DNA from: Marsupella aquatica
Taxonomy: Eukaryota; Plantae; Marchantiophyta
Length of the DNA stretch: 64,000 bases
Direction: 5' to 3'
Assembly (NCBI GenBank): GCA_973895155.1
Contig: OZ316893.1
Span: forward strand, 22,293,844 to 22,357,843
Shown here: positions 2,039-33,676 of the stretch, piece by piece
Layout: each line of letters opens with the position of its first letter
Position numbering within the stretch: position 1 is the stretch's first letter
The notes under the pieces: model-generated
Told to the model about the DNA's origin: nothing
The model's database searches: none
The model's input: the letters and a program-made list of their open reading frames with translations, nothing else
Position numbers and translations under genes: made by a program

Positions 2039-2685
2039 TCATGAAGTTGATGCTGCCTCATCCTCTAAGCATCTATTCAAATTGTCTCTTGCTTTCATTG
2101 CATGACTTTTTGCTATTCTAACTAAGCCACTTTTGGCTGTGGTCCGTCCCTTGAAACACCATAGTACAGTGTTCACACTTATTGTCTCAGTGGAATACCC
2201 TGGATCACGTTCCCATTGTTGATTCCAACAATCTAACCACCGCTGTCGTGGCTCATATTCTAGCTGACCACGTTTTCTTAGCATGTAAGGTCTATACCAC
2301 TCCACAATACACACATGTTCAAGTTGATTGTTGGCATTCAACTCTCCTTCTTCCACATTACTAATCACTTTGCCCAAATAAATTGGGTAAATATCTAGGT
2401 CAGCTGTGTCTGGCCGAACCAAGATATAATTATCTTTCATGATATCTACCCTTGGGTTAAAAGTTTCATGAGGTTTGTCTTTCCTTGGTCCCACATACCC
2501 AATCTTTGCATCCAACTCACATGCCACATTGCGGTACTATCTCTCCATTTTGACATGGGCCAAAATCCATGAACCAAGTGTTCCTCTCCAAATCTATATT
2601 GCACCGCCTCTGTCTCCAAAGTATGGATAATTTGATTCCAGTATTGTATCAGTGCCACCCATCTACCCTTTCCTTCTTTTGAAGT
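2039..2685 (-). pseudogene. 3' segment of Sola/DUF7869-like DDD transposase gene (frameshift near 2520)
   Basis: Removing the CACTA element and one AGT TSD joins ...FVYNRTT (21106) in frame to SKEGKGRWVALIQYW; continues via a frameshift into ORF 2039..2527. Confidence 0.7.
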
Positions 2686-2699
2686 CACTACAACACTAC

Positions 2700-3120
2700 C
2701 CACACCTTTTGCAAACTTGAAAGCATCGCAAACAACAAAGGAAATCAAAAAACAAAACTCGCCTTTGCGAAGTATCGCGCATCGCAATAGAATCGCAAAC
2801 TGCAAACCCCAAAGGTTCGCATCCGGTCTTTCGCAAGACCTTCGCAACGCCTTCGCAACTTGCGACACTAATAGAATCGCAAAGGACTCACATTTAAGCG
2901 ACTCCGTGGGCGTCGCGAGAGGCTTGCGATAATAATCAAGCAGTTAAATATTTGCAATCCCAGAAGTTTGGTAATCGGTTTGCGATATTAAGTTAATGGT
3001 AGTTATGCCATGAACATGGCTTCGCATTTTTGTGAACGTATGTGGTTTGCATAATGTTTGCGATACCTTCAATATGGTAAATATGCGAATTGGGTTGTTC
3101 GCATAGGTTTCGCAAGATGT
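2700..3120. repeat. CACTA-1 left subterminal repeats (TTCGCAA/TTGCGAA-type, both orientations)
   Basis: Many TCGCAA/TTGCGA motifs immediately inside the TIR. Confidence 0.85.
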
Positions 3121-3368: not shown

Positions 3369-5235
3369 CTAGAATGGGGTCCTCCTACTCCTTGTCGCCG
3401 GCCTCTTCCCCTTGTCCCTCTTGCGACGATCCGGACGTGGCACAGGAGGTGGTGCTGGCTGCTCCTCCACATCTGGTTCCTCCTCGTCCTCGTCCTCATC
3501 CTCTTCCTCCCCCTCCTGCTGGGAAACTCCTCCTACTGGTCCAGATCCACTACTCCCTCCTACCTTGGGCCCCTTTGTCGTGGTCCCCTCATTGTTCTCA
3601 TCGGTGCTGCTGGTATCACTGGCATCCTCATCATCCTGTTTGCACAGCACAACGCCAAATTGGTTTAGGTTTACGGAATGAAAAGATAAGTGGATTGGGT
3701 GGGAAAAACTGAAGGGGATACATGCACTTACAGTCGCCAACTCTGCGTCAACCAAGTCAAAGAGATGTTTGGCTCCATGCGCAGCTCCTATCTCCATCTC
3801 TTTTGCTGTTATCTTCCTGCGGTACCTCTTATACTACCACAACCAAACATTCCAAAACCAAAATCAATCGAGGTTAATATGCTATAAACCCAAGAAAAAT
3901 GCATGGAGGTGCTAATAGGGTGCCCCCTAACACAAAACTGGGCTCAATAACCCTTAGCGGTTTTTTTAAAACATAATACACACTTGCAAAACTCCCCACT
4001 TCGCAAATTCAAATAAATTGGCTGTTTGCGAAGTAGTTTGCGAAGCGAGTTATTTCGCAATAGCTTCGCATTTACAACTTTAAAAAATGCCATGATAGAC
4101 TTTGCGAAACATTTGCGAAGCAACCCGCATCGCAAAAGCTTCGCAAACTCTGTTTTTAAAAAATTCCGAGAAATCTCTAAGGCACGCAATGTGTCAGGGT
4201 GACCTAAAGTACAAGGCAGGCCGTAAGAAAGAAACAAGAGGTATGCAGGGGGGGCATTGCAGGTTTGGATAGCAATTGAAAGCAAGGAAACAGAAGCAGG
4301 GGAGGAGAGGGCCCACTCACAAAGTGTGCTTTGAGGCCGGGAAGTCCACCTTGGCCCATCTTGTGCGTGGTCTTGGGCCGTTTGCTAACTCGCTCAGCTG
4401 CAAGGATGAATTTTTGGGGTGGTGCACCCACTTCATCCACAATGTGCTGCATGTGAGACACTTTCTCAGCCATTGCCTTGAGCTCTCGGTCGGACTTCCC
4501 GGCCTTCTGTGCCTTGGCTTCCATCTCCTTCCAGAAGAGAAGGTTCCTGGCAGCTCTCATCTGCACCTCCACTTTGTAAAAGGCATTCCACACGTCCTCA
4601 GTGAATTGCAGTGGCCTCCTCACGTTTCTGTACTCCTCCAAGTTTGCCAGGTAGGCCCTTACCTTCTTTCTATCATGGTACCATGCTTGAGACATTGAAT
4701 TGGAAATTCTATCTACAAGCCACTGTTCATCAATCTCTGCTCCATTTCGAAATGAATCTTTGATTTGACTCATTACTTTCTTCTGGTCTGCCTTGCTGAG
4801 TTTCCCCCACTCAACTCCTCGTGCAAAATTGGAGCGCACCATAAGCCTGATAGTGCTCTTTGCCCCGGTGTAGGCCAGTTCAGTAGGAATGCCTTCGATC
4901 AAGGCAATCATAGGCAGCTTCTTCCTCTCTTCCTCCTTCTTTCGCTGCTCCTCCCGTTGTGCTCTTATCTCATCTTGTTCCTCTCTCCTCCTCTTCTTTT
5001 CTAGGGCAGCAGGTGAGACTACTCCTGCCTTGGCCCTCTCCTCCTTCTTACGCTTCTTCTCTCTTGCCTTCTGTTGAGCTGCACTCCTTTGCTCCTCCTC
5101 CCTTGCAATGTTCCCTGCATCTACTCCCGTTTGCAAGGCTTGCCCAAGGATTGCACTCAAAGAAGCAATCCCTACTGGTGTAGTCAAATCTAAGTGGCTC
5201 AACTGTGCTGCATTGAGGTGCTCAGCCATCAAATC
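3369..5235 (-). pseudogene. CACTA TnpA-like (Ptta/En-Spm type) gene, main exons 5235-4321, 3833-3732, 3635-3369; interrupted by solo LTR
   Basis: ORF 4204..5232 with EDVWNAFY...KTTHKMGQGG (resembles the W...H..G pattern of TnpA-type proteins); phase-0 GT-AG introns 4320-3834 and 3731-3636; acidic C-terminus with basic tail. Confidence 0.6.
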
Positions 5236-6725
5236 TGTGATGCCTAGATAGGAATCACTCAGCCAGTTAAGTGGGTAAAGCAGGAAGGCACCCTAGGAAC
5301 ACCTTAGTATAGGGACAAAACAAGGAAAATATAAATAATTAGGGGCAACCATGGAACCCGGGCCGAGGCCGGAGGTAAGGACGCTGAGGGTGAAAACTCG
5401 ATTAGGGTTAGGGCGCGTTAAGCATTGGCGGCTAGGAAGGATCAACGAGAAGAAGGACCGGCAGAGGAGAGGGGTAAGGAGCGCTTGCAGGAGATGGTGG
5501 CTCATTTGCGAGCACGAACTAGGCAGACGACTACGGGAGGCCAACTACTGTCAGCTGCTTAGGCAAGCACTCGGGGAGAGAGTAGATACCGACGATCGAC
5601 CTAAGGAGGGTATGAGCAACGTCAATCAAGTGGCACATTTCTGGGGATGCCTGTTCGAACGGGCAACTGAGTACATCAAGACTTACGAGGACGAGGAATC
5701 AGAAAGGGCAGCTCGAGAACGGCAGGAGCTCGCTCGATTGTGGGAGCTGCAGAAGACGGCTTTCTTAGGAGGCAAACTCATCAAGGACGAGTTCCTGTGG
5801 ACGCCTACTTCCAATCAACTCGACGATCTTCTGTTTTGCAAAGACAGCATCGTCGGCATCCGAGAGGCCATCAAGAACTGCAACGACATACACTGGGAAT
5901 TAAAGGGTAGCACGGAAAGGTGGACCCAAGCAACGGTGCTAGGAGAAACCTCCACAGCAGCAGAGATGAAGAGGAAGGGAGCCGTCAACGATGAAGCCAC
6001 CCCGGCAAAAAGAACGAGGTTGGCGGCACCAAAGAAGCCAGCCGAGCAGCAGAGCAGGAGGCAGGGAGAAGCCGAAGAGGAGGAGGTCGATCCCATCAAG
6101 GCCATTCCAACCAGGGATGACACCTGGAAGGGCTGGGCGGCAACCCTACCGGTGGAAGTGCAACTACATTTTGCACGGGAGGAGGATGCATGCTTTATGG
6201 CCATGCAGACCAAGAAGTATCAAGGCTTCATGGCCGGATCCGGCTTAGAGGCCTTTGTAAGATTACCATGGCTGAAGCCGGAGGTACCGGAGTCAGACCT
6301 ATTAGAATTTGTGGGGTCATGGGAACCCGAGACCAATTGCACGAGGATATATGGGAAGGATTTCTATCTTACTTCCAAGGTAATTGCCGAAGTGTTTTGC
6401 TTGCCGATAGGCAATAAGACCAAAGTTGATACCAGGAAGACCTTGCCTGACAAGGAGTTCCGGTCGTTCCCCGGGCCATCAACGAAGAATGGCTTCTTCC
6501 GGAACACCTGCACCAACCCGCACATAGGAGAGATGATCAACTTCTTGCGGGTGACCATGCATTGTAACTTGCCGAGGGCAGAGATCGGCAAGGCACAGGT
6601 CTATCTGGCAGAGAGGCCAGACCCAAGCCGGGACTACAACGGGTACCTCCTCAACCAATTGAAGAAGATCTTAAAGGAGGAGCAGCAGGTAATCGGCATG
6701 GGGAGCGTGTCGTGGCTTGGCTATC

Positions 6726-9700
6726 TGTCACGTCGTAGGCTTTGGCCTTAACTCAGACTTCAGCTTAGACGGGCACATCCCTCGTAAATCTGAGGGTTCG
6801 GGCAGGAAGGGAAGCACGTAATGCACCTTATTCTCGTAAACTAGCGCTAAGTGCGCATACTGCTAAATACGGACACCTCCTAGGTATGGTTTGTGTTCCG
6901 CCGCCGGAACGTACCCTAGTCGATAGCAGGATCGACCCCGGCTTAAGGGCTTCTAAGCCTTCGTGCTGTCCGCCTTCGATCCGGATTCGATGATACAGGT
7001 CCTCAACCCGTGCTCGCAACCACTTACCCGCAGGCTGCACCCTATGCACGTCTCGGGTAGTGCGTTCGGCCCGGCGCTGCCACCCATATACGAGAAACCC
7101 ACACACATATGCGCACACATGCATACAATCTCGATTTACACGAAGGAAAAATGATGGGAAAGGATTTTTACTACAAAGGGAACATATGCGTACACTTAGT
7201 TGACACGACAGCCCTGGAATGCACAGGTTCAAGACCAAGGGTGCACACTACAACGGAGCCCGGCTCCGCACTCGCCCGGCAAGCTTAGTCCTACCCCCTC
7301 CCCTTGGTACTCTGTCATTCCCAGAGGTCGGGACTCCCCGCATGTCCCGCGGATGTCCGACTCTGAAACAAAAAATCCCCCCTGCCTCTACCGAGGGGTG
7401 CACTAAATACTAAGAGCCGAGGAACGGGGTGTCCTCCCGCCGAAGATTCGCTGACCAAGGTCCTAACTAAGCTGACAGTCAGGCCGGAAAACGGCTGTGT
7501 CTTATTAGAAGATCCTAATCTACGCAGGCTGGACAGCAGGGCAGCGCTGCCGTACCTAAGGCAGGTGCCTGTCCCAAGAGCCTGACTAAGCCAATCCTAA
7601 TCCTAATCTATTCCTACTCCGCCGCTAATGCCTGGCACGCTTGCCAGAGCCGCCCAAATGGGAACGGCCATCCCGCTGCCTTCGAAGCCTGTCATTGTCC
7701 GCTTTGAGGAGCTGGACCTGGTCCAGCAGAGATTCGTTCTCTCGCCTCGCCGCGTCCGTCTCCTCTGCTGCCTCCTGACATGCCTCCTCCAGCTGCTGGG
7801 CGTCGCTCGCCAGTTTACTCGCCAGCTGGTCCTGCTTCTCGGCCTCGGTTTGGAGCCGCGCCATCTTGGCCTGCAGCGTGGCTATCTCCGTCGCGTCTCG
7901 CTGGGCTCGCTCCTCGGCCTCCTCCAGGTCTTTCTGCCAGGTGACAGCTTGTTTCTTCAAACTGTCAATCTGGTTCCGGAGTCGTGTAATCTCGGCCTCG
8001 TTCCCAGCTTTGGCCTGTTCGGCTAGGGCGATAAGAGCGTACGCCTTTGCTAACAACTCATCGGCGGCTGCAACCTTGGGTTGTAGTTGCAGAAGCTCAG
8101 CCTCTTGAGCCGCCACTTCGTTCTTTAGGTACACGGACTCCACCCGGTACCGCTCTATCCTCTGAAGGGCCTCCGACTGGGCCCGCCCTACCTTTACGGC
8201 GGCAACCAACTCCTGATTGAAGAAACAGGCTACCTTCCGAGCCATGAACTCCCCGGTATCCCGGGCAATTTGATGAGAGAAATCTCCCAGAAGCCCGTTC
8301 AGAAACGTACCCTGTACGAAGAGTTCCGGGTGGTCCAAGTTGTGCCTGTCCGGATTTGGGCACGGGCAGACATCAACACGCGCAGGGGCCGGGGCAGTGA
8401 CGTCCAGCCCTGGGGACATAATGTTGGAAGGGGCCGGAGTATCCTCCTGCAGCGATGTCCGGTTCTCCGGAATTGCCACCGGCGGGTCCTTGGGAGACCC
8501 GGGTTCGGGTAAGACCTCTGCCGTACCAACTTCTATACTTAGCCCGGCTAGTTGGGTCGCATCAACGGTTGCGACGACCGACCCCTCCGGCGCCTCCTCG
8601 GTTACGATTACAGCTATTTGTGGAGGTGGGGTGGGTGAAGCTGGCGTGTCCACTGGACTTCGGGCCTCGGGTTGGGGCCGTCTCTCCAATGTCGGAAAAA
8701 CCCACCTAGCTGGGACCAGCTTTGTAACGTTGATGCGGGGAAGGGTTCGTCGATCAAACCGGGCGTACCACTCAAGAATGATTTCGATGTGGCTAGCGAA
8801 ATACGCCTTCCCGCCAATGTACAGCGTCTTCCTTCGCCGCTCCATCTCTTCATGGAATTTCTTAGCGAAGTACGACGCCCACTTCCTAGGTCGATAGTTC
8901 TCGACCTGGATGACCTGGGCGGCGGAGATCTCCCCCCGGGGTTCCATCATGTGGAGAGCGTACCTCTAGAACTCCAGCCGCTCAGCTATCTCGGGCATGA
9001 GGCAGGTCCTCATCACGAACCCGTTGTCTACTGATCCCTCTGAGGGAAAACTTGAAGATTGGTACTTGGCCCCCTTGCCCCCGGGAGCCCGTGATTCGAC
9101 CGATGGTCACCTTCGGGTAACCCGAAGATCATCTTGAGCCGTTCTTCTGTGAGGGACATATTCCTTCCCCGCAGCCGAGTCTGTTGACGTACGTCGTCAT
9201 AATTCTTGACGAATTCTGTCATGTCCTCCCCGTAGTACCTGCAAGTGTTCCAGGGGAGAGAGGCGAGGTGCTCAAATCCCTGAGTCTTCAGGTACACCGC
9301 ATGCTTGGGATGGAGGATGTTGCTGTGAACGTTTTCCCCCATGCGATGCATCGTTACCTTGGCTACGGCTACCGTGGCCAACGGTAACCCGAATGCACTG
9401 GCGGATTCCTTCCTCTTCTTTCCCCGTGACTGACTCGGGGAAGGTGATACTTCCCCATCCTCCCGATCGGGCCTGGGGAGTGCCACTGCGGTTGGTAACG
9501 GGCCCGGGGCGGCCACGGTCACCATGTTGTCTGCTGGGGCCGCTCCTGGGGTCAGAGCAGGGGGTGGGGACGATATAGTGTCGGCCCCCCGAGCGCTTGT
9601 TCCTCTGGGCCGCCTGGTCAAGGGTGGGGTAGCCTCGTCGTCATCGCTAAGATCCACCGCGTTGATGACGGAGCGTACCTGTGCTGGTTGGGTGATAGGT

Positions 9701-10733
9701 GGTGGGGTTTGGCTAGGCTGCGGCTGAGGCTGAAGCTGAAGTTGAGGTTGCATGGGCACGGGTACGGGTACGGGTACGGGTACGGCTGAGTTGGTCATGT
9801 TGGTTGATGGCCGAGTTCCCATGAAGCTCTGTAGGTGCTGGTAGAAGTTCTCCGAAGCGAGTGCGGACGCCCTTGTCGAACGGTTGGTACTGGACTCGCC
9901 GTTAATGACTGCCCGAACCTGGGCAGGGATGTGGTCGAAGTGATGTCGCTGCAGGTCGATTGTACCCGGGATATTGAAGACCTCGTCCGGAAGCCGAAGC
10001 AATGCTTCCCAGAACCCGATATATTTGTCTCCGTCAAAGAAGTACCCAGATACCTCAGCTGGTCGGTAAAGCTCGCTCTGAGACGGGTAGTCAAAGTTAA
10101 GGACGTAGTGGTGTCATCCTGCTAGGCGGATGGCTCTCTCGTATTCGCGTTCGATCTCGTATCGGCGCGGGTTGGCGTGTTTCAATGAATCGGCCAAGTG
10201 CCTTCCGGTAGATAGGAACTGCGTCCAGAATCGAATGGCCAAGCTGGAGAGGATCGTGTGCGACATTCAGAGGAGATAGTAGTGGCGACCTAGAGAGAAC
10301 GAGAGAGCTGGGGTCGAAGCTGGCGCGCGGACTGATGGACTGGTGCACTACAAAGGGTTGGCTTCCCTTTTATACTTTGAGGGCTTGTCGATCCCCGACG
10401 TCTCCTCGACGCCCATAGGTTGAACCGCTCACGCTTGTGGTGTACCAGCCACTCCGCCGGTCTGAGTCAGCGTGCGTCAGTGGCCGCTTCCTTAAGTTCG
10501 TTATACGGACCCGAGGGAGGGGCCCCTCCATGCTCATAACCCGGGTGTGCGAATAGCGACCCGCCGCCAGCCCGAACCTGAAGTCCCCCTTATTGCCTAA
10601 TGATGTCCTACCCCTAATGATTACCTAAATACTGTCGTTATGCTAATAATAGCGGCCTAAGACCCACCTAACGCACGTGCCGAGCGCAGTTAGACTGAAT
10701 CACTCATTTAACCGCCGTACCGGCGGCGTCACA
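6726..10733 (-). mobile_element. Family-B element, probable solo LTR (4008 bp) carrying a homologous accessory gene
   Basis: TG...CA termini (minus strand starts TGTGACGCC, like family A TGTGATGCC); 5-bp TSD CTATC (6721-6725, 10734-10738); no gag/pol. Confidence 0.85.
7625..10266 (-). pseudogene. Family-B accessory gene (PMD/Transposase_32-like region + coiled coil); stops at 10114-10116 and 8966-8968, frameshift ~9080-9110
   Basis: Manual translation from ATG 10266: MSHTILSSLAIRFW...; motif GFEHLASLPW...EFVKNYD...TRLRGRNMSLTEERLKMIFGLPEG matches family A GLEAFVRLPW...EFVGSWE...TRIYGKDFYLTPKVIAEVFGLPIG. Confidence 0.85.
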
Positions 10734-13700
10734 CTATCACATGCCGCTGTTGTGCCGGTATGCCAGAGGTCAGACTTTTGCCCCAGTACTTCCCCTGCAG
10801 GTAAGGGCACCCGAGGAAGCTCCAACGCCGAGGCCATTGGCTGAGAAGCCTCAACCACCTGTTAGCCCTACGATCGAGCAGGTGTGTAGGCCCAGGAAGG
10901 AGGACTTGCCGATGCAGCAACCAGGCATGCAGAGTCTGCTGAAACTACTGGAGAAAGAAAATAAATCGGCATCGGCAACAACAACGGCAACGGCAACAAT
11001 GCAGGACACTACTACAGAGGTAGGCCTACACCGGCTCACAAGAGAAAACCCCTTTGCTGGAGACAAGGAGAGAATCAGGCCGGAATCCAAGCCAGGTGTT
11101 CGAATGTATGTGGGAATCTCAAGCTCCGAATCTGAGGCAGAATTGCCTGAAGCTCCTACCGACGAAGAGGAGAGGGAGAAGCCGGACGTCCAAGAAGTAG
11201 AGGAGGCAGTGGAGGACTGCAGCCATGATAATTCCGGCTATGGGTCGGACCATCACGTTCCAGGAGTAAGGACCTATGGCCGGTTTGTCCCCACACTTCC
11301 AAGGGTAGTGCGAGGGGACCCCAACCAGCAGAGTAGCCCTGAGTCTCCCCCACCAGATGTTGCTCCCCCGAGCTTTGACGGCATAAAACAGACGGTGCAG
11401 GAATTTCAGGAGCGAATCAGGCAGGAAGAGGAGGCAGCCCTGGCTAGGGAAAAGGATTTACCAGGAGGAGATTGGCCGGAGGACATCAGGCGGCTAGCTG
11501 AAAAAGGAAGCAAACCTCTAGCCACGATTGAAGAGATCCGTAGGACGGCTTGGGAGCAGAGGCCGCGATGGGCGATGCCAATCACTTCTACTTACTCCAC
11601 CTACGCTAAGAATAGAGCCATGGAGTATGGTGAGATGTGTGGGGAACTTGCGCTCGGCATCTTTGGAGAGGAGTTGGAGGTAGGACCCTTTTTCCATAGG
11701 GAGTAGTTGGAGAAGCACCAATTAGAAGAAGCGGTGGCTTTAGAGAGAAGCAAGAAGGACGAGGTCATTCGGCGGCTTAGGAGGATGGAAGCCGAGATTG
11801 AAGATCTAAGGGCGGCCAAGAAAGCCCAAGATGAACTGCGGATTAAACGGCATGAGTTGAACATCATGCAGGGGCAGTTGGACACCGCGCAGGCTGATAA
11901 TCAGAATATCAAGGATAAACTGACTCAGACGCAGGGAGAGTTGGCCGACACGATCAAAGAGAGGGAGAAGTGGAAGCGAGAGCTGAAGAATACAGAGGAG
12001 GCCCACATAACAGCCAACAGCCGGGCCATGGCGAAGACCCAAAGAAAGGAATGGGCATTGAAGGGGGAGCTCGAGAAAATCCACGGAGCCCTTGAGCTGA
12101 AGGAGGCCGAGTTAGGGAAATCCTATCAAGGGATTATGGCGCTGCAGCAGGAGCTTGCGTCCCTGACGGCCAGCTTCAAGGCCGACCTCAGGGAGAAGGA
12201 CGAGATGCTCGAACAGACTTACGCCAAGATGAACCAGATGGAGTCTGTCATCATTGCAGAGCTCGACAAGGAGCTAAGAGCAACCCGGGAGGAGAGGACT
12301 ACCTTGAAACAAGAACGGGAGGAAGCCCAAAAGGAACTAGAGGAGGCACGCAAGGACCTGGATGAGACCCAGGAGGAGTTGGAGGAAATCACGAGGAAGA
12401 TAGAGAACCTCCAGCGGCGGGCCGACAACCAAACGGAGCGGCTGAAGAAACAAGCCGCAGTATTTAAGTGCTTGTCTTCATCAGGCCCAACTCCAATTGG
12501 GGCAACCAAGTTACCAGGAGTGGTACTGGCCGAAGAAAAAGCCGCACCACCTGCACCAGTGCCGGAAGTAAGTGGGAAGGGGAAGGGACCAGCTGCCGAA
12601 CCAGAAAAGAAGAAAAAGCGGAAACCTTCAGGGTCAAGGAGTAATCCGACTCCACAAGCCGTGGTGACCAAGGAGGTAGAACCAGCACCATCCTCCGGCA
12701 TGAATACGGCAATAGATCCCGCTATCATCATAGGTGGGGGTGGTGCGGCCCAAGCCGAACTACTCAGTAATGAGGCCGGTATTCCAGATCCGCCTCTTGA
12801 GCAGGCCGGGGAGACCGTAGCCGAGGCTGAGGCCGTAACCGATTCCCGAGCCGATGCCGACGCCGATGGTGGACCCAGTCAGGCCGATGGAGAGTTGACT
12901 CAGTCAAGGGCAGGTAATCTGTCAGAGAATGAGCCTACGGCACTGGCTGAGGAGGAAGCGTTGGGGGCGTCCATTAAGGATCCACCACCGGTGTCGTGAT
13001 GGTGCAAGGGCGCCATTCCTTTTAGGGAGGGTGGACGTGGAGGGAGGAGGCGTGAGTGGGCAGGGCGGGCGCTGATCTCCAAGTTTAGGATTAGGATCAG
13101 GACCAGGAGCGGCCCTGACACTTAGCTTAGTGGGATTGCGGTCCCACTGGTAGGAGCAACACTTGTGCTCCTGCCTTGCTGTACATAGGTAGATTCGGGC
13201 AAGTAGATTACTGTTAAGTAGATTAGGCTTACGATGCAAAGAATGGTGGATCCACTACCAGGATAAGTACCTGGGCAGCGGGGAGCTCAGGGCCTCTTCT
13301 TTAGCAAGTTTTTAGTTTGCACCAGCCGGGCTGGGATCAAGTAGTACGAGAAGCTCTCAGTTAGTCATACAGTGACCCTTGTGTATATTCATGTTTCCTC
13401 ATGCCTAAGAGCTGAATAGAGTTTGGCCTCACGGCTTAGTTCGCAAAGCTTGTGTATGAGATGTACTGTTTGTATGGCAAGTGCATGGTATGACTCAGTC
13501 AGAATGAGTCATTTTGCTATTTGTGTGTCGCATTAACTTGTGTGAAGAGTGCCCACATCAACCAGAAGGAAGGAAAGTAAGCAGGGGAGTGAGAGTTGGA
13601 TGTGTCGAGCTGAGAGAGGTCTTAGCGGCTTAACCAAGCCTATTGGGGATCATTCCGGCGGCGGAATCCAAACATACCTAACAGGAAGACAGGGGAAGAC

Positions 13701-13913
13701 AGGGGAAGGCCTATATTAGGCCGGCTACGTATCTCATGACCCGATGAAGGATCTGTCCAGTATATGTGTGTAAAATGTTAATAGTAGTAGTAGAAGGTTA
13801 GCAGCGTCCCATGCCGCTAAGCCGCGGAAACGGCCTCGCCAAGCGCGAAACCTGCGGGAATCGGCTTGAGCTGGGGGGTTTCTTGGGTTTAGGGAGCCAT
13901 GGGACGCACCACA

Positions 13914-14017
13914 AAATCGGTCCATCGATTCCTCTCCTGCTCCCCATTGCCTTCATTCCCATTGCCACTGTCACTCACCCCTGCCCTATCACCTCCATTT
14001 GCTCCACTGGAATCCAT
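13914..14017 (-). pseudogene. 5' end of the CACTA-1 TnpA-like gene
   Basis: ATG at 14017 gives MDSSGANGGD...RNRWTD, joining in frame to LMAEHLNAAQ after removing the LTR and one TSD. Confidence 0.7.
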
Positions 14018-15316
14018 AGCCAAGCCACCCCCCGAGCGCGCGCGAGCTCCCTTCTCCCTCCCTACACTTGAAATTTGTCAAATGCCGCTGAGTACGCCGC
14101 GGCCGAGTGCAAAAGTACAAGCGGGAAAGACTTGCGAAGCAACCCATTTCGCAAGTTGCGATTCTTCTTGTTTCGCATATAGTTTCTCAATTTTGCGAAA
14201 CCATTGCGACGTGAAAGGCTTCGCAACACCTTCGCTCTCTCGCAGAAATGCTCTCAGGCTCTGTTTTTCTGAAGGTCTTGCGAAAGCAGCAGCTTCGCAA
14301 ACCTCAATTCTAATTTGTGATGGTATTTGCGAAGGAAGCGGCTTCGCAAGACATTGGCAACTCGTCCTGGGGGAATGTTGGTTTCATTTGAAAGGGTTTT
14401 TTTCAAAGGTGAAGTGGACCCCTCTATACTCATATTTGGAATGCTTTTTGGCCATGTTTTGGGTGTTAGATAATAGTTGAAGGCGGGTTTGAAGGGTTAG
14501 GCAGATTTCAGGTTAATGGGTTATGTATGGTGTTGGTTTAGGCTAAGGTTTGGGTTTACATTAGTTTAGAAGAAATAATAAAGGTGTGGGATTTGGTTTA
14601 CAAGAAATAAGTAAGGTTTGGGTTTAGGGTTTTAGGGTTTGGGGTTTTTAAATAGAAAGGTCTCTAGGGTTGAAGAAAGGTTTGGGTTTGTGTGTAAGTC
14701 AGATTTAGGTTTAATAGGTAGGATGCGGTTTGGGGTTGAAGGTTTGGATAAGACAAAGCAAGATTTCATGAGATTTATATTGCAGCCTTTTGGGTTTAAG
14801 AGAGGTTCATTGGGTTTATGAATCAAAAGGGGATTGGCATGGGTTTTGCTAACAAAGGAGGGGAATATATGATAGCTTGCAGGGTGCGGCACTTTTTGAT
14901 GATTTGATACTAATGCATATGCATTGTGAGAGCCCGGGCATCTGAAAGGTAAACATTGCATGATCGGCTAAAGTGTTCCTTTCATGTACTTAACACTTTT
15001 GGTTGCCACTATGTATAAAGGGGACATGTATATAGGGTTTTTTGTTCTTGTCTGGTCCAGATTATTGTGCTTACATATACATGGAATGGTTGCAGCTTTT
15101 CCCTCATACTTTCAGATTGGGTTCATTAATTATCTTAGAGCCACAAGAGCTACTGGCACTGCTGAGCCCGGGTCTCATAAAGGTACCTTTTTTATTGCTA
15201 TGGTCATTTTGGTTTGGGTTTCTTGTCATCATTATTTGGGAACTTTGATTTATATCATTTTGTGGTATGTTTTGGTCATAACATGCCCATTTTAATTATA
15301 TCTTGTTACAGGGGAT

Positions 15317-15550
15317 ATGTCTTCATCTTCTGAAATCTCCACCATAGACTCGTCCTCCTCTGATGAAGATACACCACCTCCACCTCAACATCACACGACC
15401 GCACCTCCTCCTCGCGGTCCACCCCGTCAACTTTGTGAATGTTCCAGATGTGTGGGTCAGGTTTCCCAAAAATCTTACATATGTGCCCAACATATTGAGA
15501 GATATGGGCGTTGTGGACGTCATACGGCAGGGGCTTCTTCATCTCATATG
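15317..15550 (+). CDS. First coding exon of CACTA-1 transposase locus (Cys/His transposase-associated, zinc-binding-like motif)
   Basis: CECSRC...CAQHIERYG; 78 codons ending in phase 0 before GTAAGT at 15551; acceptor TTACAG just upstream of the ATG. Confidence 0.7.
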
Positions 15551-15653
15551 GTAAGTGTTATGCCTTAGTTTTCCTACCCTATTCCCATTACTCAATGGTT
15601 GAAGGTTTGCAATTTCACACCTACTTTTGTTTGTTTTGGTTTCGGTGGAATAG

Positions 15654-16469
15654 GTATCCAATAGGCCTAGACCTGCGGCACAAGCACCCTATGTCCCATC
15701 ACAAGGTGTTCTAGATGCTATAGGCAATGCATTCTCAAAAGCCTTGGGTCTAGCGGCAAGGCCCACCAGTCCTAGGGAAGTTGGGGTTGAGGCTATTGTC
15801 CCAAGAGGGAGAAAGCGTTCCAAGAGGCGGGCCCGAGGGGATACTGATTTGTACAAGGCAGTGGTTACGGGTCGGTGGGGTGATTGTGAGTTCACTGGCA
15901 GATGTGTCCCTATCATCAAGGACTGGGATCCTGAGACTCTTGGTTTGCCACAACAGCTTTCCTACGGTGCGGAGGTAGAGGTTTGGGGTAGACGTTGGGT
16001 TATCAAACCTTCCACACTTGGGGATAGACATGGCTATGGAGTTTTTGCCTGTGAGGACATCATTGTGGATGCCGAGAGTGGTAGAGGTGGACGCGGCCGA
16101 GAGGGGCCTACTTTGTTTCCTTATGGTGGACCCATCTACAAGAGAAGACATTGGAACATGATCCTTGCACAACACCCTGAGTGGAAGACTTATGCATTGG
16201 ACATGGATACTTTTGATGGAAACACTAGAAGGTATAGTGAGCAGCGTGTCATAGATGGGGACCCCATACGGACTGGGAATATTGTTGGTTTCATAAACAG
16301 TACCGTGGGGACTCGCCCTAAGCGTAGGCAAAATTGTGAGTGGGTTTTCATTGAGGGTCCTCCGCCAGCACCTTATGGCCAGACATATCATCATGACCAT
16401 TGCCTAGTTGTAGCAACAAGGACCATTAACTCAGGGGATGAGTTATTTACTCACTATGAATGGGATTAG
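15654..16469 (+). CDS. SET-domain (lysine methyltransferase-like) exon inside CACTA-1
   Basis: Motifs HGYGVFACEDI, PYGG, IDGD...GFINST, NC, ATRTINSGDELFTHY; open frame from acceptor AATAG|15654 to TAG 16469. Confidence 0.85.
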   Translation, partial: VSNRPRPAAQAPYVPSQGVLDAIGNAFSKALGLAARPTSPREVGVEAIVPRGRKRSKRRARGDTDLYKAVVTGRWGDCEFTGRCVPIIKDWDPETLGLPQQLSYGAEVEVWGRRWVIKPSTLGDRHGYGVFACEDIIVDAESGRGGRGREGPTLFPYGGPIYKRRHWNMILAQHPEWKTYALDMDTFDGNTRRYSEQRVIDGDPIRTGNIVGFINSTVGTRPKRRQNCEWVFIEGPPPAPYGQTYHHDHCLVVATRTINSGDELFTHYEWD

Positions 16470-16645
16470 GGTTAAGTTAAGGGTCATAGGTGGTATGTTG
16501 CATATCAAAGGGCACTACATATGGCCTTTGGCCACATTTTGTATTTGCACCACAACCAATATTATTTCATTTTTGCACACCCCTAGCCCATTTTTGTGTG
16601 TGTTCTCTTTGCAATATAACTTTCAATTGTTTGCTTTGTTTTTAG

Positions 16646-19600
16646 AATGTGCGACCCTCTCCAAATATGTTACCACGGAGATTGAGAGCAACATATCGAG
16701 AAATGGGTATGCCAGAAGAAGGACATGGATCAGAGTCACACTCCTCATCAAGTGCTAGTGGAAGCAGTAACCCTGATGAAGAGGTACCTCGGACGGATGA
16801 ACAAGTAACTGATGACCGGGATAGAGCCATGGATGACTTTATGGTTGATTGGTTTGGTGCCGACAACCTTGGTGATGACCTTCCCAATGAAGGGCAGGTG
16901 CCCCCCAATGATCCACGCCCAAGACATACCCCTGAGGGACAACGCCAATGGGAAGAAGCAGAGGAACATGCCCGAACACCTATCTATGAGGGTGCTCGTT
17001 TGAGTCATCTTTCAGCCATCTTGGGGTTGATGAACCTACAGGCCAAACACAAGGCAAGCAATGCCTTGTTATCTGATATGTTTGCACTTTGCCATGACCT
17101 TATGTTGCCCACTGAGAATGTGTTGCCAGCAACTTGGAAGGAGGCAAAGAGTGTTCTCTCATCTATTGGCATGGAATATCATATTGTTCATGCATGTGTG
17201 AATGATTGCATGTTATTTCATGGGGCCAATGCAAACATGACACAATGTACAACATGTGATGAGCCTCGCTATGACCCCAACATGCTAACAAAGAAGGTGC
17301 CAAGGAAGGCTGTTCGTTGGTTTCCCATCATTCCTCGGTTGTTGCACATGTATCGGTGTTCTGACTTGGCAGAGTTGATGGTATGGCATAAGACTCATCG
17401 ATCAGAGTCTGGTGTCATGCGGTTGCCAGTTGACTCCCCTGCTCACAAACATATTGAGGCAACATGGCCAGACTTTGCACATGATCCTCGCCATGTGAGG
17501 CTAGGATTGGCATCTGATGGAGTTAGCCCTCATTCACTTGGAGGAAAGGGGCAACCTACATCAGTTTGGCCTGTGGTTGTCATGAATTATAACCTCCCAC
17601 CATGGCTATCCATGAAGAAGGGGTTCCTTTTATTGTCTTTGATTATCCCAGGTCCAAAAAAGGTGAAGAACTTTGACACTTACTTGGCACTATTGGTTGG
17701 AGAACTTCAAAAATTATGGAATGGAGTGTGGGCATATGATGGCAGGAAAATTACAGGAGGTTTTCCACGTGTCTTTCAATTGAGAGGGATCATTTGTTGG
17801 ACAATGCATGACTATCCTGGTAAGATATATGACTTCCATGCCATTTGCAACCCTTCAATAATGTGTAGTTCCTATTGATGTTTCTCATGTGACAACTCTA
17901 ACATAAATTTTGCATGGTTTGATTTCTTCTATGTAAGCAGGGTTTGGTTTTGTCTCTGGATTGCAAACTCAGGGGTACAAAGCTTGCTCTACTTGTGGCC
18001 CAAGCTTAGAGGACATGGCCACATATTGTTCATGGATTAGAAAGATTGTTTATATTGGGCATACAAAGTTTCTTCCCATGGGGCATGAGATGAGGTTTGA
18101 CCCACTTCTATTCTCCTCCTTTGACATGCCATTTGGTGATGAGCGTGAAATTCCTGATGCAACAAGTTTTGCACATTGGAAGTCACTAGCTGATAGGGTG
18201 GCAGACCCAAATGATTCCTTCACCTTTGATAGGACAGGTTTGACCAGGTGGAGTATACTAGCCACTTTGCCCTATTGGTCTGAGTTGAAGATCCGCCATC
18301 TTTTAGACCCCATGCACATAGAGGGAAATGTGGGGAAGGCTTTGATAAAGCATTTTTATGGGGAGAAGGACACTAATTTTAGGGAGGCATGCGAGGAGAT
18401 GGAAATGCATCCAGATGTTTGGGTGACAATTGATCCTATCACAGGTGTGGAGAATCGTCCTTCTGCTCCTTGGGTGTTGAGTGTTGGCCAAAGACGTGAA
18501 TTTCGGAACCGTATAGGAGAGATGCGGTTTCCTACAGGCTATGGTGCCAACCTTCGAAAAGCTTTTGGGATGGAGGACAATCACAAGTGGCCACGATATC
18601 TAAAGACACATGACTATCATCGCCTATTGCAGCATATATTGCCAGTGGCAATTATAGGTATAGGGAGTGAAGAAGTGCAAGATGCCATCTGGTCATTGGG
18701 TCGTTTGTTGAGATGGATATGCTCAAAGGAGATATATGTAGAAGAGATCCCTGGGATGGAGGTATTGGCAGCTGAGGTGGTATGCAAGTTGGAGAAAGCC
18801 CTTCCTCCTTCCTTCTTTGATTGTCAGGTTCATTTACTTGTGCATCTTGTGCGGGAGGTTGCCATTGCAGGTCCAGTGCATTGTAGATGGATGTATTGGC
18901 TTGAGCGTTACATGGCGGTGTTGAAGGCTTATGTACGTAACCGTGCACGGGTGGAGGGAAGCATAGCTACAGGATACTTGGCAACAGAGAGTATATTTTA
19001 TTGTAGTAACATCTTGGCCACCATTGATCCTACTTGTCCATGTACTTGGATGGAGGAAAGAGAAGAGGAGGAGGACCGTTTAACAGGTGCCACAAAAACA
19101 CGCATGTTGACATCAACAGAGTGGTCACAGTTGACAACATTTATGTTGAGTAATAGTAATATCATGGAGAAATGGAGAGAGTTTTATGAGAATGCCAAGA
19201 GAACAAGTCAAAGAGCAAGAATTTTTCCTAAGATGCATGAGTATATGAAGCAAAAGTTGCTTGAGTTGGATGACATGGTGACACAAGGAGGAGATGTGTC
19301 CCACTTTCCTACCATCACAGATGACGTTCGGACCATTGTTCATGGCCCTTTGAGAGTGGTGACATCCAAGACGGCTATGTGGACACAAGGGAGACACTTC
19401 AGGTCCACTAGTACCTAACCTTTCTTCCTCTATTAATTCATGTAGACCTTATTTTGATTAGTTATTTCTATTGTTTAAAAACTTTCTATTATCATTAATG
19501 ACATCCATAACTGTAATGTTGGCTTCTATATTTATGCCATAGGCCATGTGGGTTTTGGCTATTTAGGGATGGGTGTCATATTTTGATGATTATTACATTA

Positions 19601-20140
19601 ATGGTATCTTTTACAGTGTAATAAAAATTTGTGGGTTTTGTTAATTTCAGGGTTTCTTCCCTTGATGAGAAGAGGGGTCGTACTTTTGATTGTGGAGTTC
19701 AAGGGGAATTTTCTCAAGACTCCAGAAGCAGCCGCCATGACAGGAACATTGTTAGAGATGTTGTGCCACACTATGGGAAGATAGAGGAGATCTTGGTGGT
19801 ATCATATGACAACCATTCAAAGTTTGAGGAATATGTCTTCAAGTGCAAGTGGTTCAAAGTGAACCTTGTTGGTCAAAATTGCACTGTACTTCAAGATGAG
19901 AGTGGGTTTACACGGTTGAAGACAAGTGCCACTAGTGTTCAAGCATCTCATTGGCAAACGTCAGAACCATTTGCTTTCCCATCACACTTGGAGCAATGTT
20001 TCTACATTCCATACCCCTTAGACACCGAGTGGTCAATTGTCATCACCTATGTGCCACGTTCTCGTTCCATTGTTTCTGAGAAGCCAGATGTTATTGTATC
20101 AGACCTAGATGACCTTGAGGCCGATGAGGACCAAGTGTGA
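16646..20140 (+). CDS. CACTA TnpD/Tnp2-type transposase (exons 16646-17819, 17941-19402, 19651-20140)
   Basis: HACVNDC, RLGLASDG, WPV...YNLPP, HDYP, LDPMH, KTHDYH, PPSFFD..HLLVHL, WMY..ER, FKCKWF motifs; phase-consistent GT-AG introns; no stops seen in the exons. Confidence 0.93.
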
Positions 20141-20609
20141 GGGACATATTTATATGCACTTGGGTCCAGCCTAGACATTTGTTCATGTTATATTTGATTT
20201 GTTCATGTTTGGTGATATAAAAAAATTAAAGGATTGTCTATATTTATATTTGCCATTCACTTTTGAATGAGTCATACTCATGACATATGTATTGTATTGT
20301 TTTATTGTGATCACTTGTGAATTTTACATGCAACTTTCTATCTAACCTCTGTTGCTCAATATAACTTTATTTCCTACTTATTCCATAATTTTCATTCTCA
20401 CTCTCGTGTTTCCCTCCTCCGTGGTACGTCTGTCCCTCCTCCTCCCTTCCTCTTTCTCCTCCCTCCTTCCTCTTCCATTGTACTCCCTCCCTTTTCCATC
20501 CTTCATTGTACCTCCCTCCATCCTCCCTTCCTCTTCCCTCCTGCCCCATCCATATATTGGACCATCCACCCTCTTCATTGTCTCACCTCACAATAATCTT
20601 AATTTTTAG

Positions 20610-21095
20610 TTTGCAAACAATTTGCGAAGCTCACAAACTCTCACCGGACTCGCAATTTCTATGAATCTTCTCGTTTCTCAATATTTCCATACTACACTCT
20701 TCGCACACTTGTGATGCAAAATCAATCACAAATTTCATATTTTCACCGTTTTGCAAATCTTCCATCCTTCGACATTCTTAAACTTGTCAAACAAATACTA
20801 TCGCAAAACATTTTCAATCCAATCTTCTTCGCAAATATTTACATGAGTTAGTTTCGGAGTCGGCGAGCGATTTTTCCGTCTTCGGAAGGCGCCTTTCCAT
20901 TCAACGCGTTTTGGTAAAATTTGCAAAACCACGTACTTCGCAATTTATTAGCGATATAATGCGCTTCAGCTATTAGATTTGCAATAGGGATAGAATCACA
21001 AATTGCGATGCGGGTTGATTCGCAAAATATGCAAAGCGCCGCCCATCGGAAATACAAGAGCGTCGACAAAAATACCTTCGCAAAAGTGTCAAATA
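20610..21095. repeat. CACTA-1 right subterminal repeats (TTCGCAA-type)
   Basis: Repeated TTCGCAA/TTGCGAA next to the right TIR. Confidence 0.8.
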
Positions 21096-21105
21096 TGTTG
21101 TAGTG

Positions 21106-22840
21106 AGTAGTTCGATTGTAGACAAAATTAAAAAATTTCACTTGCTTATGTAGTCCTTGTCGCACCTCCTCTACCATGGCCATTTCTATCATTGGTAATC
21201 TTTTTGGTTCTCCTACGGGAAGTTTTGGACTATTATCATCCGTCCACGACCACATCTCAATACCTTCTCTTGGGAGCCAATCATCCTCTTGGCATTTCAT
21301 TTTGTATTGAAGGCATGGCATACCATCATCACGCACATACAATCGAAATAGTCGTGGTTGCAAATGCCCCACCAATGAGTCCCCTCCTTTAAGCAAGTAT
21401 GGTTCCAAGTATGATTTAAAATCGGGCACCTCTTGCACGAAATGGGGAACTGGATGTGGAGTCCTTGCCCCCATTAACAATGACATTAGATCTGCCAAAG
21501 AATAGGTTGGGTTACGCATTAAACTTTCAGAGAAATGGCCAAACATAGCATCAACATCCTCATGAGTATGTCCGACCATGAGAAATCCCAGATGAATCTC
21601 TTCAAAAACATCTCTTGTCGTCAGTAGGGACAAATAACCCAACACATATCTGTTTTTGTTATCTCCTACACAATTGTCAAGTTGTAACTTCAAAACTCTT
21701 GGAAGAGGCTTGAAGGTAGTAGACGCATCCAATGAGTGTGACTTCGCTGCAAAAATTTAAGAACCATATATATTAGGGTCAATAATTAATTTAGAGCCAA
21801 AACATTTTCATAGAGCCTACATATTTTCTTAGACATATAGAATAACCAATAATATACCATCATGGGCAACGATTTATGAACATAAACTCAAATGAACTAT
21901 AGTTTCTAGTCTGAAATAAATAGTTAACGGTTCAAGCCATGGTTCTCACTAAGTTTTGCATACACTAACAACAAACCATGGGTCACACTTTCAATAAGCT
22001 AGTTACAATGAACCATGGTTTGTGCTCTCAAATAAACTAACAATAAAGAATGGTTCATACTTTGAAATAAACTATCAACGAACCATGGTTTGCACTTATC
22101 ACATAAAATAACAAACAAGGATATATCCTAAGAAAATGACTCTCACATGAGCGAATAATAACAATCTTTATGTCAACTGACAATGAACTCTGGTTGACAC
22201 CTTGGAAGGTCACATCACTTACAAAGGAAGCATGGTTGATACTGAATATGGCATAAAAATAACAACACTTATTTGCATTGAAGTGAAATAATTACCTAGA
22301 TTTGATATTTCGTCCTTAAATGCTTCACAAAGTTTTCCCTCCAATATAGGTCCTCGCCCCTCAAGCAAGTTTTCAAATAGTTTTGTGGAATCTGGCCCTT
22401 CCACTAAAGATTTGATCATCGGTTCTGGATTTTCCAACATTCGAAGTATTGTGTCAAGTGAACCAATTGTGGCATTGGCATCACGTGCCCACACTCCAAC
22501 ATTATATTGAGCAATAGCTTTTGGACCATGGCCATGAGTCAAAATACCAGTCAAGGTAATTGGAAGTTTAATCGCACCATCCACTTCTTTTGGACAAAAG
22601 GGCATCCTTGGTAGTGCAGTCTTACAATGATCCATTTTATCATGAATTATGCATAAGACCTGTTTTGGATTATCAACAGACTGGCGTCTCCAAGAGTGAT
22701 ATAATAATCTGCCTTCGGTATGATCACGATGATGAGCGATTTCATCCCTCTTTAAAATCTCAATCTCTTCTTTCACACCGGTCAGATTTGCTTTCCGTTG
22801 CATCAACTCACTACAAGTTGTACACTTGGAAAAGTTATTG
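21106..22840 (-). pseudogene. Catalytic core of Sola/DUF7869-like transposase (exons 22840-22296, 21746-21106)
   Basis: FSKCTTC, IIHDKMD, LQLDNCVGDNKN and FLMVGHTHEDVDAMF motifs; phase-1 intron 22295-21747 (GTAATT...TTTTTGCAG). Confidence 0.8.
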
Positions 22841-25800
22841 TGTGGTGCGTCCCATGGCTCCCTAAACCCAAGAAACCCCCCAGCTCAAGCCAATTCCCGC
22901 AGGTTTCGTGCTTGGCGAGGCCGTTTCCGCGGCTTAGCGGCATGGGACGCTGCTAACCTTCTACTACTACTATTAACATTTTACACACATATACTGGACA
23001 GATCCTTCATCGGGTCATGAGATACGTAGCCGGCCTAATATAGGCCTTCCCCTGTCTTCCCCTGTCTTCCCCTCCGTCTTGTTAGGTATGTTTGGATTCC
23101 GCCGCCGGAATGATCCCCAATAGGCTTGGTTAAACCGCTAAGACCTCTCTCAGCTCGACACATCCAACTCTCACTCCCCTGCTTACTTTCCTTCCTTCTG
23201 GTTGATGTGGGCACTCTTCACACAAGTTAATGCGACACACAAATAGCAAAATGACTCATTCTGACTGAGTCATACCATGCACTTGCCATACAAACAGTAC
23301 ATCTCATACACAAGTTCTGCGAACTAAGCCGTGAGGCCAACTCTATTCAGCTCTTAGGCATGAGGAAACATGAATATACACAAGGGTCACTGTATGACTA
23401 ACCGAGAGCTTCTCGTACTACTTGATCCCAGCCCGGCTGGTGCAAACTAAAAACTTGCTAAAGAAGAGGCCCTGAGCTCCCCGCTGCCCAGGTACTTATC
23501 CTGGTAGTGGATCCGCCATTCTTTGCATCGTAAGCCTAATCTACTTAACAGTAATCTACTTGCCCGAATCTACCTATGTACAGCAAGGCAGGAGCACAAG
23601 TGTTGCTCCTACCAGTGGGACCGCAATCCCACTAAGCTAAGTGTCAGGGCCGCTCCTGGTTCTGATCCTAATCCTAAACGTGGAGATCCGCGCCCGCCCT
23701 GCCCACTCACGCCTCCTCCCTCCACGTCCGCCCTCCCTAAAAGGAACGGCGCCCTTGCACCGTCACGACACCGGTGGTGGATCCTTAATGGACGCCCCCA
23801 ACGCTTCCTCCTCAGCCACTGCCGTAGGTTCATTCTCTGATAGATTACCTGCCCTTGACTGAGTCAACTCTCCATCGGCCTGACTGGGTCTACCTTCGGC
23901 TTCAGCCTCGACACCGGCCTCGGCAATACCCACGGCTTCGGCCTCAGCCACTCCCTCGGCTTCGGCCTCCCCTTCCCCTAGGGTAGTTGGATCCCTAGCC
24001 GTGACCCTGTCTGGGGTCGGTGCTGGGTCTACCTCCTTGATCACCACGGCCTGTGAAGTCGTATTACTCCTTGACCCTGAAGGTTTCCGCTTCTTCTTCG
24101 TTGGTGGCTCGGCAGCTGGTCCCTTCCCCTTCCCACTTACTTCCGGCACTGGTGCAGGTGGCGCGGCTTGTCCTTCGGCAATTACCACCCCTGGTAACTG
24201 GTTTGTCCCAACGGGAGATGGACCTGCTGCAGCTAAGCATTTAAGTACTGCGGCTTGTTTCTTCAGCCGCTCTGTTTGGTTGTCGGCCCGCCGCTGTAGG
24301 TTCTCCATCTTCCTCGTGATTTCCTCCAACTCTTGGGTTTCATCCAGGTCCTTACGTGCCCCCTCCAGCTCGTTTTTGGCCTCCTCTTGCTCCCTGTGGG
24401 CTTCCTCCAATTCCTTCTTCAAGGTAGCCCTCTCCTTCTGGGTTGCTCTTAGCTCCTTGTCGAGCTCTGCAATGATGACAGACTCCATCTGGTTCATCTT
24501 GGCGTAAGTCTGTTCGAGCATCTCGTCCTTCTCCCTTAGGTCGGCCTTGAAGCTGGCCGTCAGGGACGCAAGCTCCTACTGCAGCGCCATAATCCCTTGA
24601 TAGGATTTCCCTAACTCGACCTCCTTCTGCTCAAGGGCTCCGCGGATTTTCTCGAGCTCCCCTTTCAACGCCCATTCCTTTCTTTGGGTCTCCGCCATGG
24701 CCCGGCTGTTGGCTGTTATGTGGGCCTCCTCTGTATTCTTCAGCTCTTGCTTCCACTTCTCCCTCTCTTTGATCATGTCGGCCAACTCTTCCTGCGTCTG
24801 AGTCAGTTTATCCTTGATATTCTGATTATCAGCCTGCGCGGTGTCCAACTGCCCCTGCATGATGTTCAGCTCATGTCGTTTAATCCGCAGTTCATCTTGG
24901 GCTTTCTTGGCCGCCCTTAGATCTTCAATCTCGGCTTCCATCCTCCTAAGCCGCCGAATGACCTCGTCCTTCTTGCTTCTCTCTAAAGCCACCGCTTCTT
25001 CTAATTGGTGCTTCTCCAACTGCTCCCTATGGAAAAAGGGTCCTACCTCCAACTCCTCTCCAAAGATGCCGAGCGCAAGTTCCCCACACATCTCACCATA
25101 CTCCATGGCTCTATTCTTAGCGTAGGTGGAGTAAGTAGAAGTGATCGGCATCGCCCATCGTGGCCTCTGCTCCCAAGCCGTCCTGCGGATCTCTTCAATC
25201 GTGGCTAGAGGTTTGCTTCCTTTTTCGGCTAGCCGCCTGATGTCCTCCGGCCAATCTCCTCCTGGTAAATCCTTTTCCTTAGCCAGGGCGGCCTCCTCCT
25301 CCTGCTTGATTCGCTCCTGAAATTCCTGCACCGTCTGTTTTATGCCGTCGAAGCTCGGGGGAGCAACATCTGGTGGGGGAGACTCAGGGCTACTCTGCTG
25401 GTTGGGGTCCCCTCGCACTACCCTTGGAAGTGTGGGGACAAACCGGCCACAGGTCCTTACTCCTGGAACGTGATGGTCCGACCCATAGCCGGAATTATCA
25501 TGGCTGCAGTCCTCCACTGCCTCCTCTACCTCTTGGACGTCCGGCTTCTCCCTCTCCTCTTCGTCGGTAGGAGCTTCAGGCAATTCTGCCTCAGATTCGG
25601 AGCTTGAGGTTCCCACGTACATTCGAACACCTGGCTTGGATTCCGGCCTGATTCTCTCCTTGTCTCCAGCAAAGGGGTTTTCTCTTGTGAGCCGGTGTAG
25701 GCCTACCTCTGTAGTAGTGTCCTGCATTGTTGCCGTTGCCGTTGTTGTTGCCGATGCCGATTTCTTTTCTTTCTCCAGTAGTTTCAGCAGACTCTGCATG

Positions 25801-33629: not shown

Positions 33630-33676
33630 TACCTACGCTTCTGTTCTAACTTCATATCTCACGGCTTAAGAAATGC

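Follow-up and report, generated by a model that had tools for sequence, protein, structure and literature searches.

A conserved SET-domain exon within the transposase gene of a liverwort CACTA transposon, with a first exon probably shared between SET and TnpD products

A CACTA (En/Spm) transposon in the genome of the liverwort Marsupella aquatica carries, inside its transposase gene, an exon encoding a SET domain. The element, an autonomous-type CACTA transposon, occupies positions 2686-21105 of the window, i.e. the whole stretch of 64,000 nt analysed (GCA_973895155.1, contig OZ316893.1), in which all coordinates below are given; the region under study, 15317-20140, is its right arm. In the reading we favour, at a probability of roughly 55%, one promoter would serve two products, the choice of the 3' splice site would yield either a Cys/His+SET protein or the transposase TnpD, and the SET protein would write an expression-favouring histone mark on the element. 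The gene is composed as follows:

15096..15182, plus strand: conserved upstream exon, likely a non-coding 5' untranslated region (UTR), with AG...GT borders and sequence kept in the four loci listed
15317..15550, plus strand: exon 1, coding part, with a Ser-rich start, a CxCxxC-x13-H-I-xx-Y-G motif, PF13963-like, and a phase-0 donor
15654..16469, plus strand: SET exon, a linker with a basic patch followed by the SET domain, with the stop directly after YEWD
16646..17819, plus strand: TnpD exon 2 (Transposase_21 start, first catalytic Asp), phase 0, beginning seven codons ahead of the first Met
17941..19402, plus strand: TnpD exon 3 (C2C, H motif, DUF4218, catalytic Glu)
19651..20140, plus strand: TnpD exon 4 (DUF4216), ending in the stop

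Exon 1 is a 78-codon frame whose donor, ATG/GTAAGT, lies in phase 0, and either acceptor, GGAATAG ahead of 15654 or TTTTTAG ahead of 16646, continues its frame; every coordinate that the initial annotation, made from the letters of the sequence, had given for this arrangement holds. In the mechanism we propose, the SET exon (271 codons) would have been inserted long ago behind the exon encoding the N-terminal Cys/His domain of TnpD, and would act as an alternative last exon. Splicing of exon 1 to 15654 would give predicted isoform A, a Cys/His+SET protein of 349 aa with its stop at 16467-16469. Splicing to 16646 would give predicted isoform B (15317-15550, 16646-17819, 17941-19402, 19651-20140), a TnpD of 1119 aa without internal stop, in which all introns are GT-AG, the DDE, C2C and H motifs are present, and the TnpD exons contain Pfam domains PF02992, PF13960 and PF13952. 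The SET protein, to judge by its basic patch, would enter the nucleus, would be brought to the element via the shared N-terminal domain or via element proteins at the TTCGCAA repeats, and would methylate histones there, keeping the element expressed. Recruitment and the pro-expression mark are the weakest of these steps and lean on analogy with TnpA of Spm3 and with VANC.

A hidden Markov model search recovers SET in the exon (Pfam PF00856, E 1.6e-5, 25.7 bits vs a curated cutoff of 22.4), in line with the motif-based call that preceded it, and the Pfam scan returned SET alone, with no methylase domain. The AlphaFold model of the SET protein, built from a 50-sequence alignment, reached a predicted local distance difference test score (pLDDT) of 91 and a predicted template modelling score (pTM) of 0.86; an earlier model had a pLDDT of 63. 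Foldseek matched it to SET8 at E 1.8e-7, with solely SET domains among the matches listed, and the VIA comparison gave Z 12.4 with a root-mean-square deviation (rmsd) of 2.7 over 124 residues to yeast Set1, and Z 11.8 with an rmsd of 2.3 over 123 residues to SET8. Searches of solved structures with the single sequence and a shallow profile yielded no SET, a deeper profile did match SET, and the best solved match to the family profile was LegAS4 (E 1.7e-4). We regard exon 15654-16469 as a true SET domain and predicted lysine methyltransferase.

The GxG motif, the NH-like motif and the terminal ELxxxY tyrosine that had been noticed in the SET frame are kept across the family alignment. The residues concerned are GxG at 127-129, Y157, N215-S216, N227 and E263...Y268; in 100 aligned rows reaching down to ~30% identity, many of them near-identical Sphagnum-type copies, conservation was 91/96 for G127, 92/96 for G129, 81/97 for Y157, 78/89 for N215, 83/83 for N227, 72/73 for E263 and 67/69 for Y268. 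The domain is comparable with Set1, SET8, SET7/9, EZH2 and the bacterial LegAS4/RomA in its fold (Z 11-12) and in the motifs GxG, YxG, N and ELxxxY. It differs from histone SET domains by its low identity to them (~20-27%), N-S in place of N-H, inserted loops and the lack of pre- and post-SET Cys clusters, and is not assignable to any host SET class.

What the SET protein would act upon is the point at which our reading meets its main rival, possible though doubtful in our estimate, according to which the splicing is the same and the SET protein is no pro-element histone writer: it would modify a non-histone target (TnpD or the protein of the divergent gene described below), set a repressive mark, or serve as a weak scaffold or reader. 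Two results speak for such a role and against ours. SET1, SET8, SET7/9 and PRC2 are tied in structure, so that no single histone site, and indeed no substrate, is indicated, and the canonical motif RFINH (PMC3980110; here and below, published work is cited from the portions of each source that were covered) is absent, the window reading GFINS and the family G[FY]INS. The rival further draws on the protein terminating right after YEWD without a post-SET Cys cluster, and on the weak constraint among recent copies (see below). Against it, the full set of S-adenosylmethionine (SAM)-binding and catalytic residues is kept over ~30% identity, the basic patch suggests nuclear import, and LegAS4, the nearest solved relative by profile, which is described as an H3K14 methyltransferase, has RYINF at the NH position. 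Since this active relative also lacks the His, N-S does not by itself exclude activity. The initial annotation was right that NH is replaced by NS, and its doubt about activity is weakened, N-S being the family norm (78/89 and 81/89 rows); in our reading the SET protein likely works as a SAM-dependent lysine methyltransferase.

The SET exon proved not to be a one-off capture, as conserved order, splice phases and catalytic residues were found in relatives. There were 42 close SET relatives, those named being Calypogeia fissa (73%), several Sphagnum species and Riccia sorocarpa (39%), and 94 SET matches among 50%-identity representatives, reaching a lycophyte fragment at E 3e-4; in Sphagnum the sequence is multi-copy, with 360 members in one 90% cluster. 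For the analysis of gene order, 36 related loci were picked via conserved SET peptides. It should be added that 35 of them represent one Sphagnum-like family, so that the set is neither unbiased nor independent, which detracts from our reading. TnpD directly follows SET in 23 of these loci, nine end too soon, and four have a truncated SET without TnpD behind it; exon 1 precedes SET in 17, another 17 start too close, and two are without exon 1. On other deep branches SET is joined to TnpD sequence in gene models (P0050, P0212, P0249, P0253, the P0201 group, P0219, P0247 and P0257), and of 185 SET-bearing proteins, 22 combine the Cys/His motif and SET in a single chain, among them the distant P0180, P0197 and P0213; the remainder are mostly single-exon or partial calls.

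In a tree of 50 rows, a subset selected for its breadth across the family, the window grouped with Calypogeia and Sphagnum in a shallow clade (100/98), and Riccia copies fell on other branches, a pattern that hints at horizontal transfer or at old paralogous families. Contigs from eight sequencing runs (five organisms) cover the SET exon, four runs holding most of the region. No relative was found among 57 candidate stretches of viral contigs, nor among 72 from prokaryote genomes; viral SET folds resemble that of the window at fold level only (<=23% identity). One candidate relative, P0193, was rejected as a repeat artefact. The above data support the view that the SET exon is conserved cargo of a CACTA lineage common to mosses and liverworts.

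As separate observations, P0237, P0248 (Calypogeia) and P0255 (Diphasiastrum) are distant SET-family members with no transposase evidence, the first having N-terminal Cys/His repeats; these three could be domesticated or carried by other elements.

The initial annotation had proposed that the Cys/His exon is a targeting exon shared with the transposase. Sharing is indeed the most likely arrangement, and we consider it quite probable from the sequence; the "targeting" part fared less well, given that the exon resembles an ordinary TnpD N-terminal domain. The exon 1 donor keeps its place in all 14 loci scored; phase 0 holds for acceptor 1 in 13 of 13, and acceptor 2 falls at the identical codon in 21 of 23, the two exceptions being a mutated site and one displaced by a codon. 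The agreement in splice phase goes beyond chance, since the donor and both acceptors reappear in relatives whose introns differ from those of the window. The seven codons before the first Met of TnpD are conserved as N-V/I-R-P-S, the codons for R and P having changed synonymously, and in the distant relatives P0253 and the P0201 group this Met is missing; for both reasons TnpD exon 2 likely needs an upstream coding exon. Furthermore, exon 1 aligned with a home-built profile of 83 TnpD N-termini (PF13963), whose template rows were chosen by motif regular expression, at an hhalign probability of 87% and 9.8-13.2 bits, and this likeness supports sharing by alternative splicing. In the Pfam scan there was no direct match for exon 1 and no PF13963 in exons 2-4.

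Several results count against a shared exon 1. The likeness to PF13963 is modest (9.8 bits vs 9.1 for the best of 500 shuffles). Exon 1 is joined straight to TnpD in none of 14 database proteins, the annotators having chosen exon 1+SET, and no junction read was present in the contigs of the eight runs, all of which behaved as DNA with introns covered. The conserved UTR exon also offers another donor. A further candidate line of splicing evidence, contig joints at introns, was rejected since the joints fit diverged sister copies; a coding role of the UTR exon was likewise rejected, because in relatives a stop interrupts the frame leading into exon 1.

A rival reading has two tandem genes with nothing but promoter and UTR exon in common: exon 1 would belong to SET alone, and the TnpD mRNA would run from the donor at 15183 to 16646, its translation beginning seven codons into that exon, at the Met. 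In its favour, the UTR exon is conserved together with its donor, the window, all 23 loci listed and Riccia P0050 have the Met, the database models connect exon 1 only to SET, and separate tandem genes are described for some Arabidopsis EN/SPM families (PMC13547354). We nevertheless hold this arrangement to be improbable, for it is at odds with the conserved pre-Met codons and their synonymous changes and with the relatives that have no Met there, and it would deprive TnpD of a PF13963-type domain carried by 95 of the 120 TnpD relatives listed. Less probable still is a SET-transposase fusion of the SETMAR kind, spliced from inside the SET exon to TnpD. The database fusion models named above, together with P0028, point that way; their fusion points, however, vary between models, with the catalytic Tyr cut off in most. 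Moreover, no phase-0 donor was scored inside the window's SET exon (scoring used approximate frequencies), the sole donor common to most loci is in phase 1, and of the 24 loci listed nearly all retain the post-SET stop. We favour alternative splicing from a shared exon 1 as the likely arrangement.

Purifying selection on the SET exon was shown between lineages, the ratio of nonsynonymous to synonymous substitution rates (dN/dS) of the window vs its relatives being 0.23 for the SET core (36 loci), 0.16 for exon 1 (17 loci) and 0.10-0.15 for TnpD (4-17 loci); these values are in effect one or two lineage comparisons, owing to the SET-peptide selection of loci and their origin mainly in one family. 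Polymorphism among sister copies runs the other way. The corresponding ratio pN/pS was 0.87-0.94 for SET vs 0.34-0.55 for TnpD, with no clear purifying signal for SET, and 0.94 vs 0.34 for variants present in at least three sister copies; under stricter filters, high-frequency shared variants gave 0.45-0.65 for SET, from few sites and without significance. Constraint on the SET exon within the family, which the initial annotation had named as a check, is evident between lineages; the recent sister copies look near-neutral, and may or may not be under selection. The latter ratios, and the stops carried by many copies, would suit a neutral fragment of a host gene captured by the CACTA element and having no role. 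We find this scarcely credible. TnpD bears stops in those copies as well, SET has the same position in moss and liverwort elements, and there was no recognisable host SET gene among the 94 matches; with catalytic residues conserved even on deep branches and dN/dS at 0.23, neutral capture is largely refuted.

A side observation on the same exon is that its synonymous divergence (0.70-0.83) is lower than that of TnpD exon 2 (1.3-2.5) in the same pairs (loci L001, L011, L014, L016, L017, L020 and L024), for which exon exchange, codon constraint or composition could account.

The assignment to a CACTA transposon made in the initial annotation was borne out by terminal inverted repeats (TIRs), an AGT target-site duplication, TnpD domains and subterminal repeats, all of which are present; its coordinates were correct for the right arm, the element itself being wider. 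The remaining features of the element are:

2683..2685, no strand: left target-site duplication AGT, identical to the 3 nt at 21106-21108
2686..2695, plus strand: left CACTA-type TIR of 10 bp, identical to the reverse complement of 21096-21105
2765..3115, no strand: left subterminal TTCGCAA/TTGCGAA cluster
3369..3833, minus strand: downstream exon(s) of a divergent accessory gene, borders approximate, 5' part kept in relatives
4000..4146, no strand: subterminal-type repeats clustered internally, with an exon of the divergent gene on either side
4204..5229, minus strand: main exon of the divergent accessory gene (like open reading frame 2 (ORF2)/TnpA by position only), no Pfam match
5236..13913, plus strand: secondary insertion, a solo long terminal repeat (LTR) of the neighbouring Gypsy family (TG...CA, 5-bp duplication AAATC), not part of the CACTA element
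14132..14349, no strand: eight subterminal-type repeats, likely the bidirectional promoter region
20622..21083, no strand: right subterminal repeat cluster
21096..21105, minus strand: right TIR, followed by the AGT duplication at 21106-21108

Both marks of a CACTA element, CACTA...TAGTG TIRs (10 bp) and a 3-bp duplication (AGT), were found, and the empty site restores the frame of the DUF7869 gene that the element interrupts. Once the LTR insertion with the further insert nested in it at about 6726-10733 is subtracted, the element proper measures 9,737 bp. Within it lie 25 of the 29 TTCGCAA/TTGCGAA motifs of the window, at both ends, in the divergent gene and in the likely promoter region, and these repeats are likely candidate binding sites for an element protein.

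The divergent gene stands head-to-head with TnpD, and the Arabidopsis EN/SPM layout is described as tandem (PMC13547354). It occurs upstream of exon 1 in 10 of the 36 related loci at 52-59% identity, with dN/dS = 0.28, and in most related loci it is ~0.8-1 kb from exon 1, the LTR insertion being absent there. Neither Pfam nor a profile comparison with two PF03004-bearing segments gave a match. Because the LTR sits just before the start codon of this gene, a few bases ahead of it, the window's copy of the element is probably impaired, i.e. crippled in cis.

The surroundings of the element are rich in other repeats. A young Gypsy element lies at 22841-38336 on the minus strand, with LTRs at about 22841-27476 and 33699-38336 that are 99.2% identical and unusually long (4.6 kb), one of which has an open frame of 1217 codons with a long coiled coil (34620-38273); related Gypsy LTR copies were found at 1-1557, 5236-13913 and 59315-63810. 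The DUF7869 gene (PF25273, E 1.9e-38) at 2039-2685 and 21106-22884, minus strand, which hosts the CACTA element, is also split by the Gypsy element at 22841, and is probably itself another transposon's gene. Another CACTA transposase, diverged from the TnpD described here (50-62% identity), is represented by its 3' end, which an LTR splits into 58581-59333 and 63814-63996, minus strand; its 5' part is beyond the window. Long open frames at 54347-56807 (plus strand) and 38498-39772 (minus strand) are probably parts of other transposons, and 42658-43218 contains degenerate plant-telomere-like CTAAACCCTA repeats in a 496-bp duplication.

Transposon-borne SET genes are already known, and what sets the present one apart is that, in bryophyte CACTAs, it probably shares an exon with the transposase. 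The closest published case is the accessory gene PAG2 of red-algal Plavaka (EnSpm/CACTA superfamily), which carries PF00856 SET and was proposed to be a chromatin modulator (bioRxiv 10.1101/2025.02.11.637652). Both are EnSpm-superfamily DNA transposons bearing a SET domain, and, as far as the portions covered describe it, PAG2 stands as a gene of its own, in which SET is fused to an adenine methylase, within a three-gene cassette of giant elements of 17-19 kb, whereas here a lone SET exon lies inside a TnpD-type gene of a 9.7 kb element. This distinction is drawn from the descriptions, and the SET exon shows neither the methylase fusion nor the three-gene cassette that define Plavaka. SET genes were also reported in HarbingerS and MuDR of Phytophthora (PMC12730594), and SET-carrying Helitrons are on record as well (bioRxiv 10.1101/2025.02.11.637652; PMC12730594). 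These, too, are DNA transposons with a captured SET gene, but they belong to other superfamilies and hosts, and the portions covered present the genes as accessory, with no mention of exon sharing with a transposase.

TnpA and TnpD arise by alternative splicing in maize En/Spm and Arabidopsis EN/SPM3 (PMC13547354, bioRxiv 10.64898/2026.08.24.746577), and TnpA of Spm3 is described as anti-silencing (bioRxiv 10.64898/2026.08.24.746577). The present element resembles these in that a transposase and a second protein come from one CACTA gene, here as predicted from sequence. It is unlike En/Spm in that the second product is a SET-fold enzyme and not TnpA, the ORF2-like gene being separate and divergent. 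By analogy, the SET protein may also be likened to VANC of VANDAL: like VANC, it is encoded by the element itself and, acting via short repeated motifs, might relieve the silencing of the family to which it belongs. VANC is the non-enzymatic product of a separate gene in MuDR elements. Its anti-silencing effect is reported as proven (PMC12730594; bioRxiv 10.1101/2025.02.11.637652). A SET exon inside a land-plant TnpD gene or a bryophyte CACTA was not found in the literature portions covered, including PMC11982613, PMC4158355, PMC12973397 and 10.64898/2026.08.24.746577, a scope outside which Repbase and preprint supplements may hold such families. The exon-sharing layout was not found in print within this scope; the idea itself is less novel than the initial annotation suggested, SET accessory genes having already been reported in Plavaka and other transposons.

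A bolder and quite tentative extension of our reading is that bryophyte CACTAs would have kept, across several deep lineages and possibly with moss-liverwort horizontal transfer, a histone methyltransferase of their own, encoded by an alternative last exon of the transposase gene, that the Cys/His domain would steer it, and that the splice choice would switch between protective chromatin and jumping. In the literature covered we found no activity test of the oomycete and algal transposon SET genes. The family described here resides in liverworts close to tractable model bryophytes, and a small, compact predicted enzyme together with a defined repeat motif allows a test of whether a transposon writes its own histone marks. 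The present data also suggest that, in the annotations of Sphagnum and liverworts, many gene models labelled "SET domain-containing" belong to transposons. If our reading is true, the transposon would couple a chromatin enzyme and a transposase through one splice decision.

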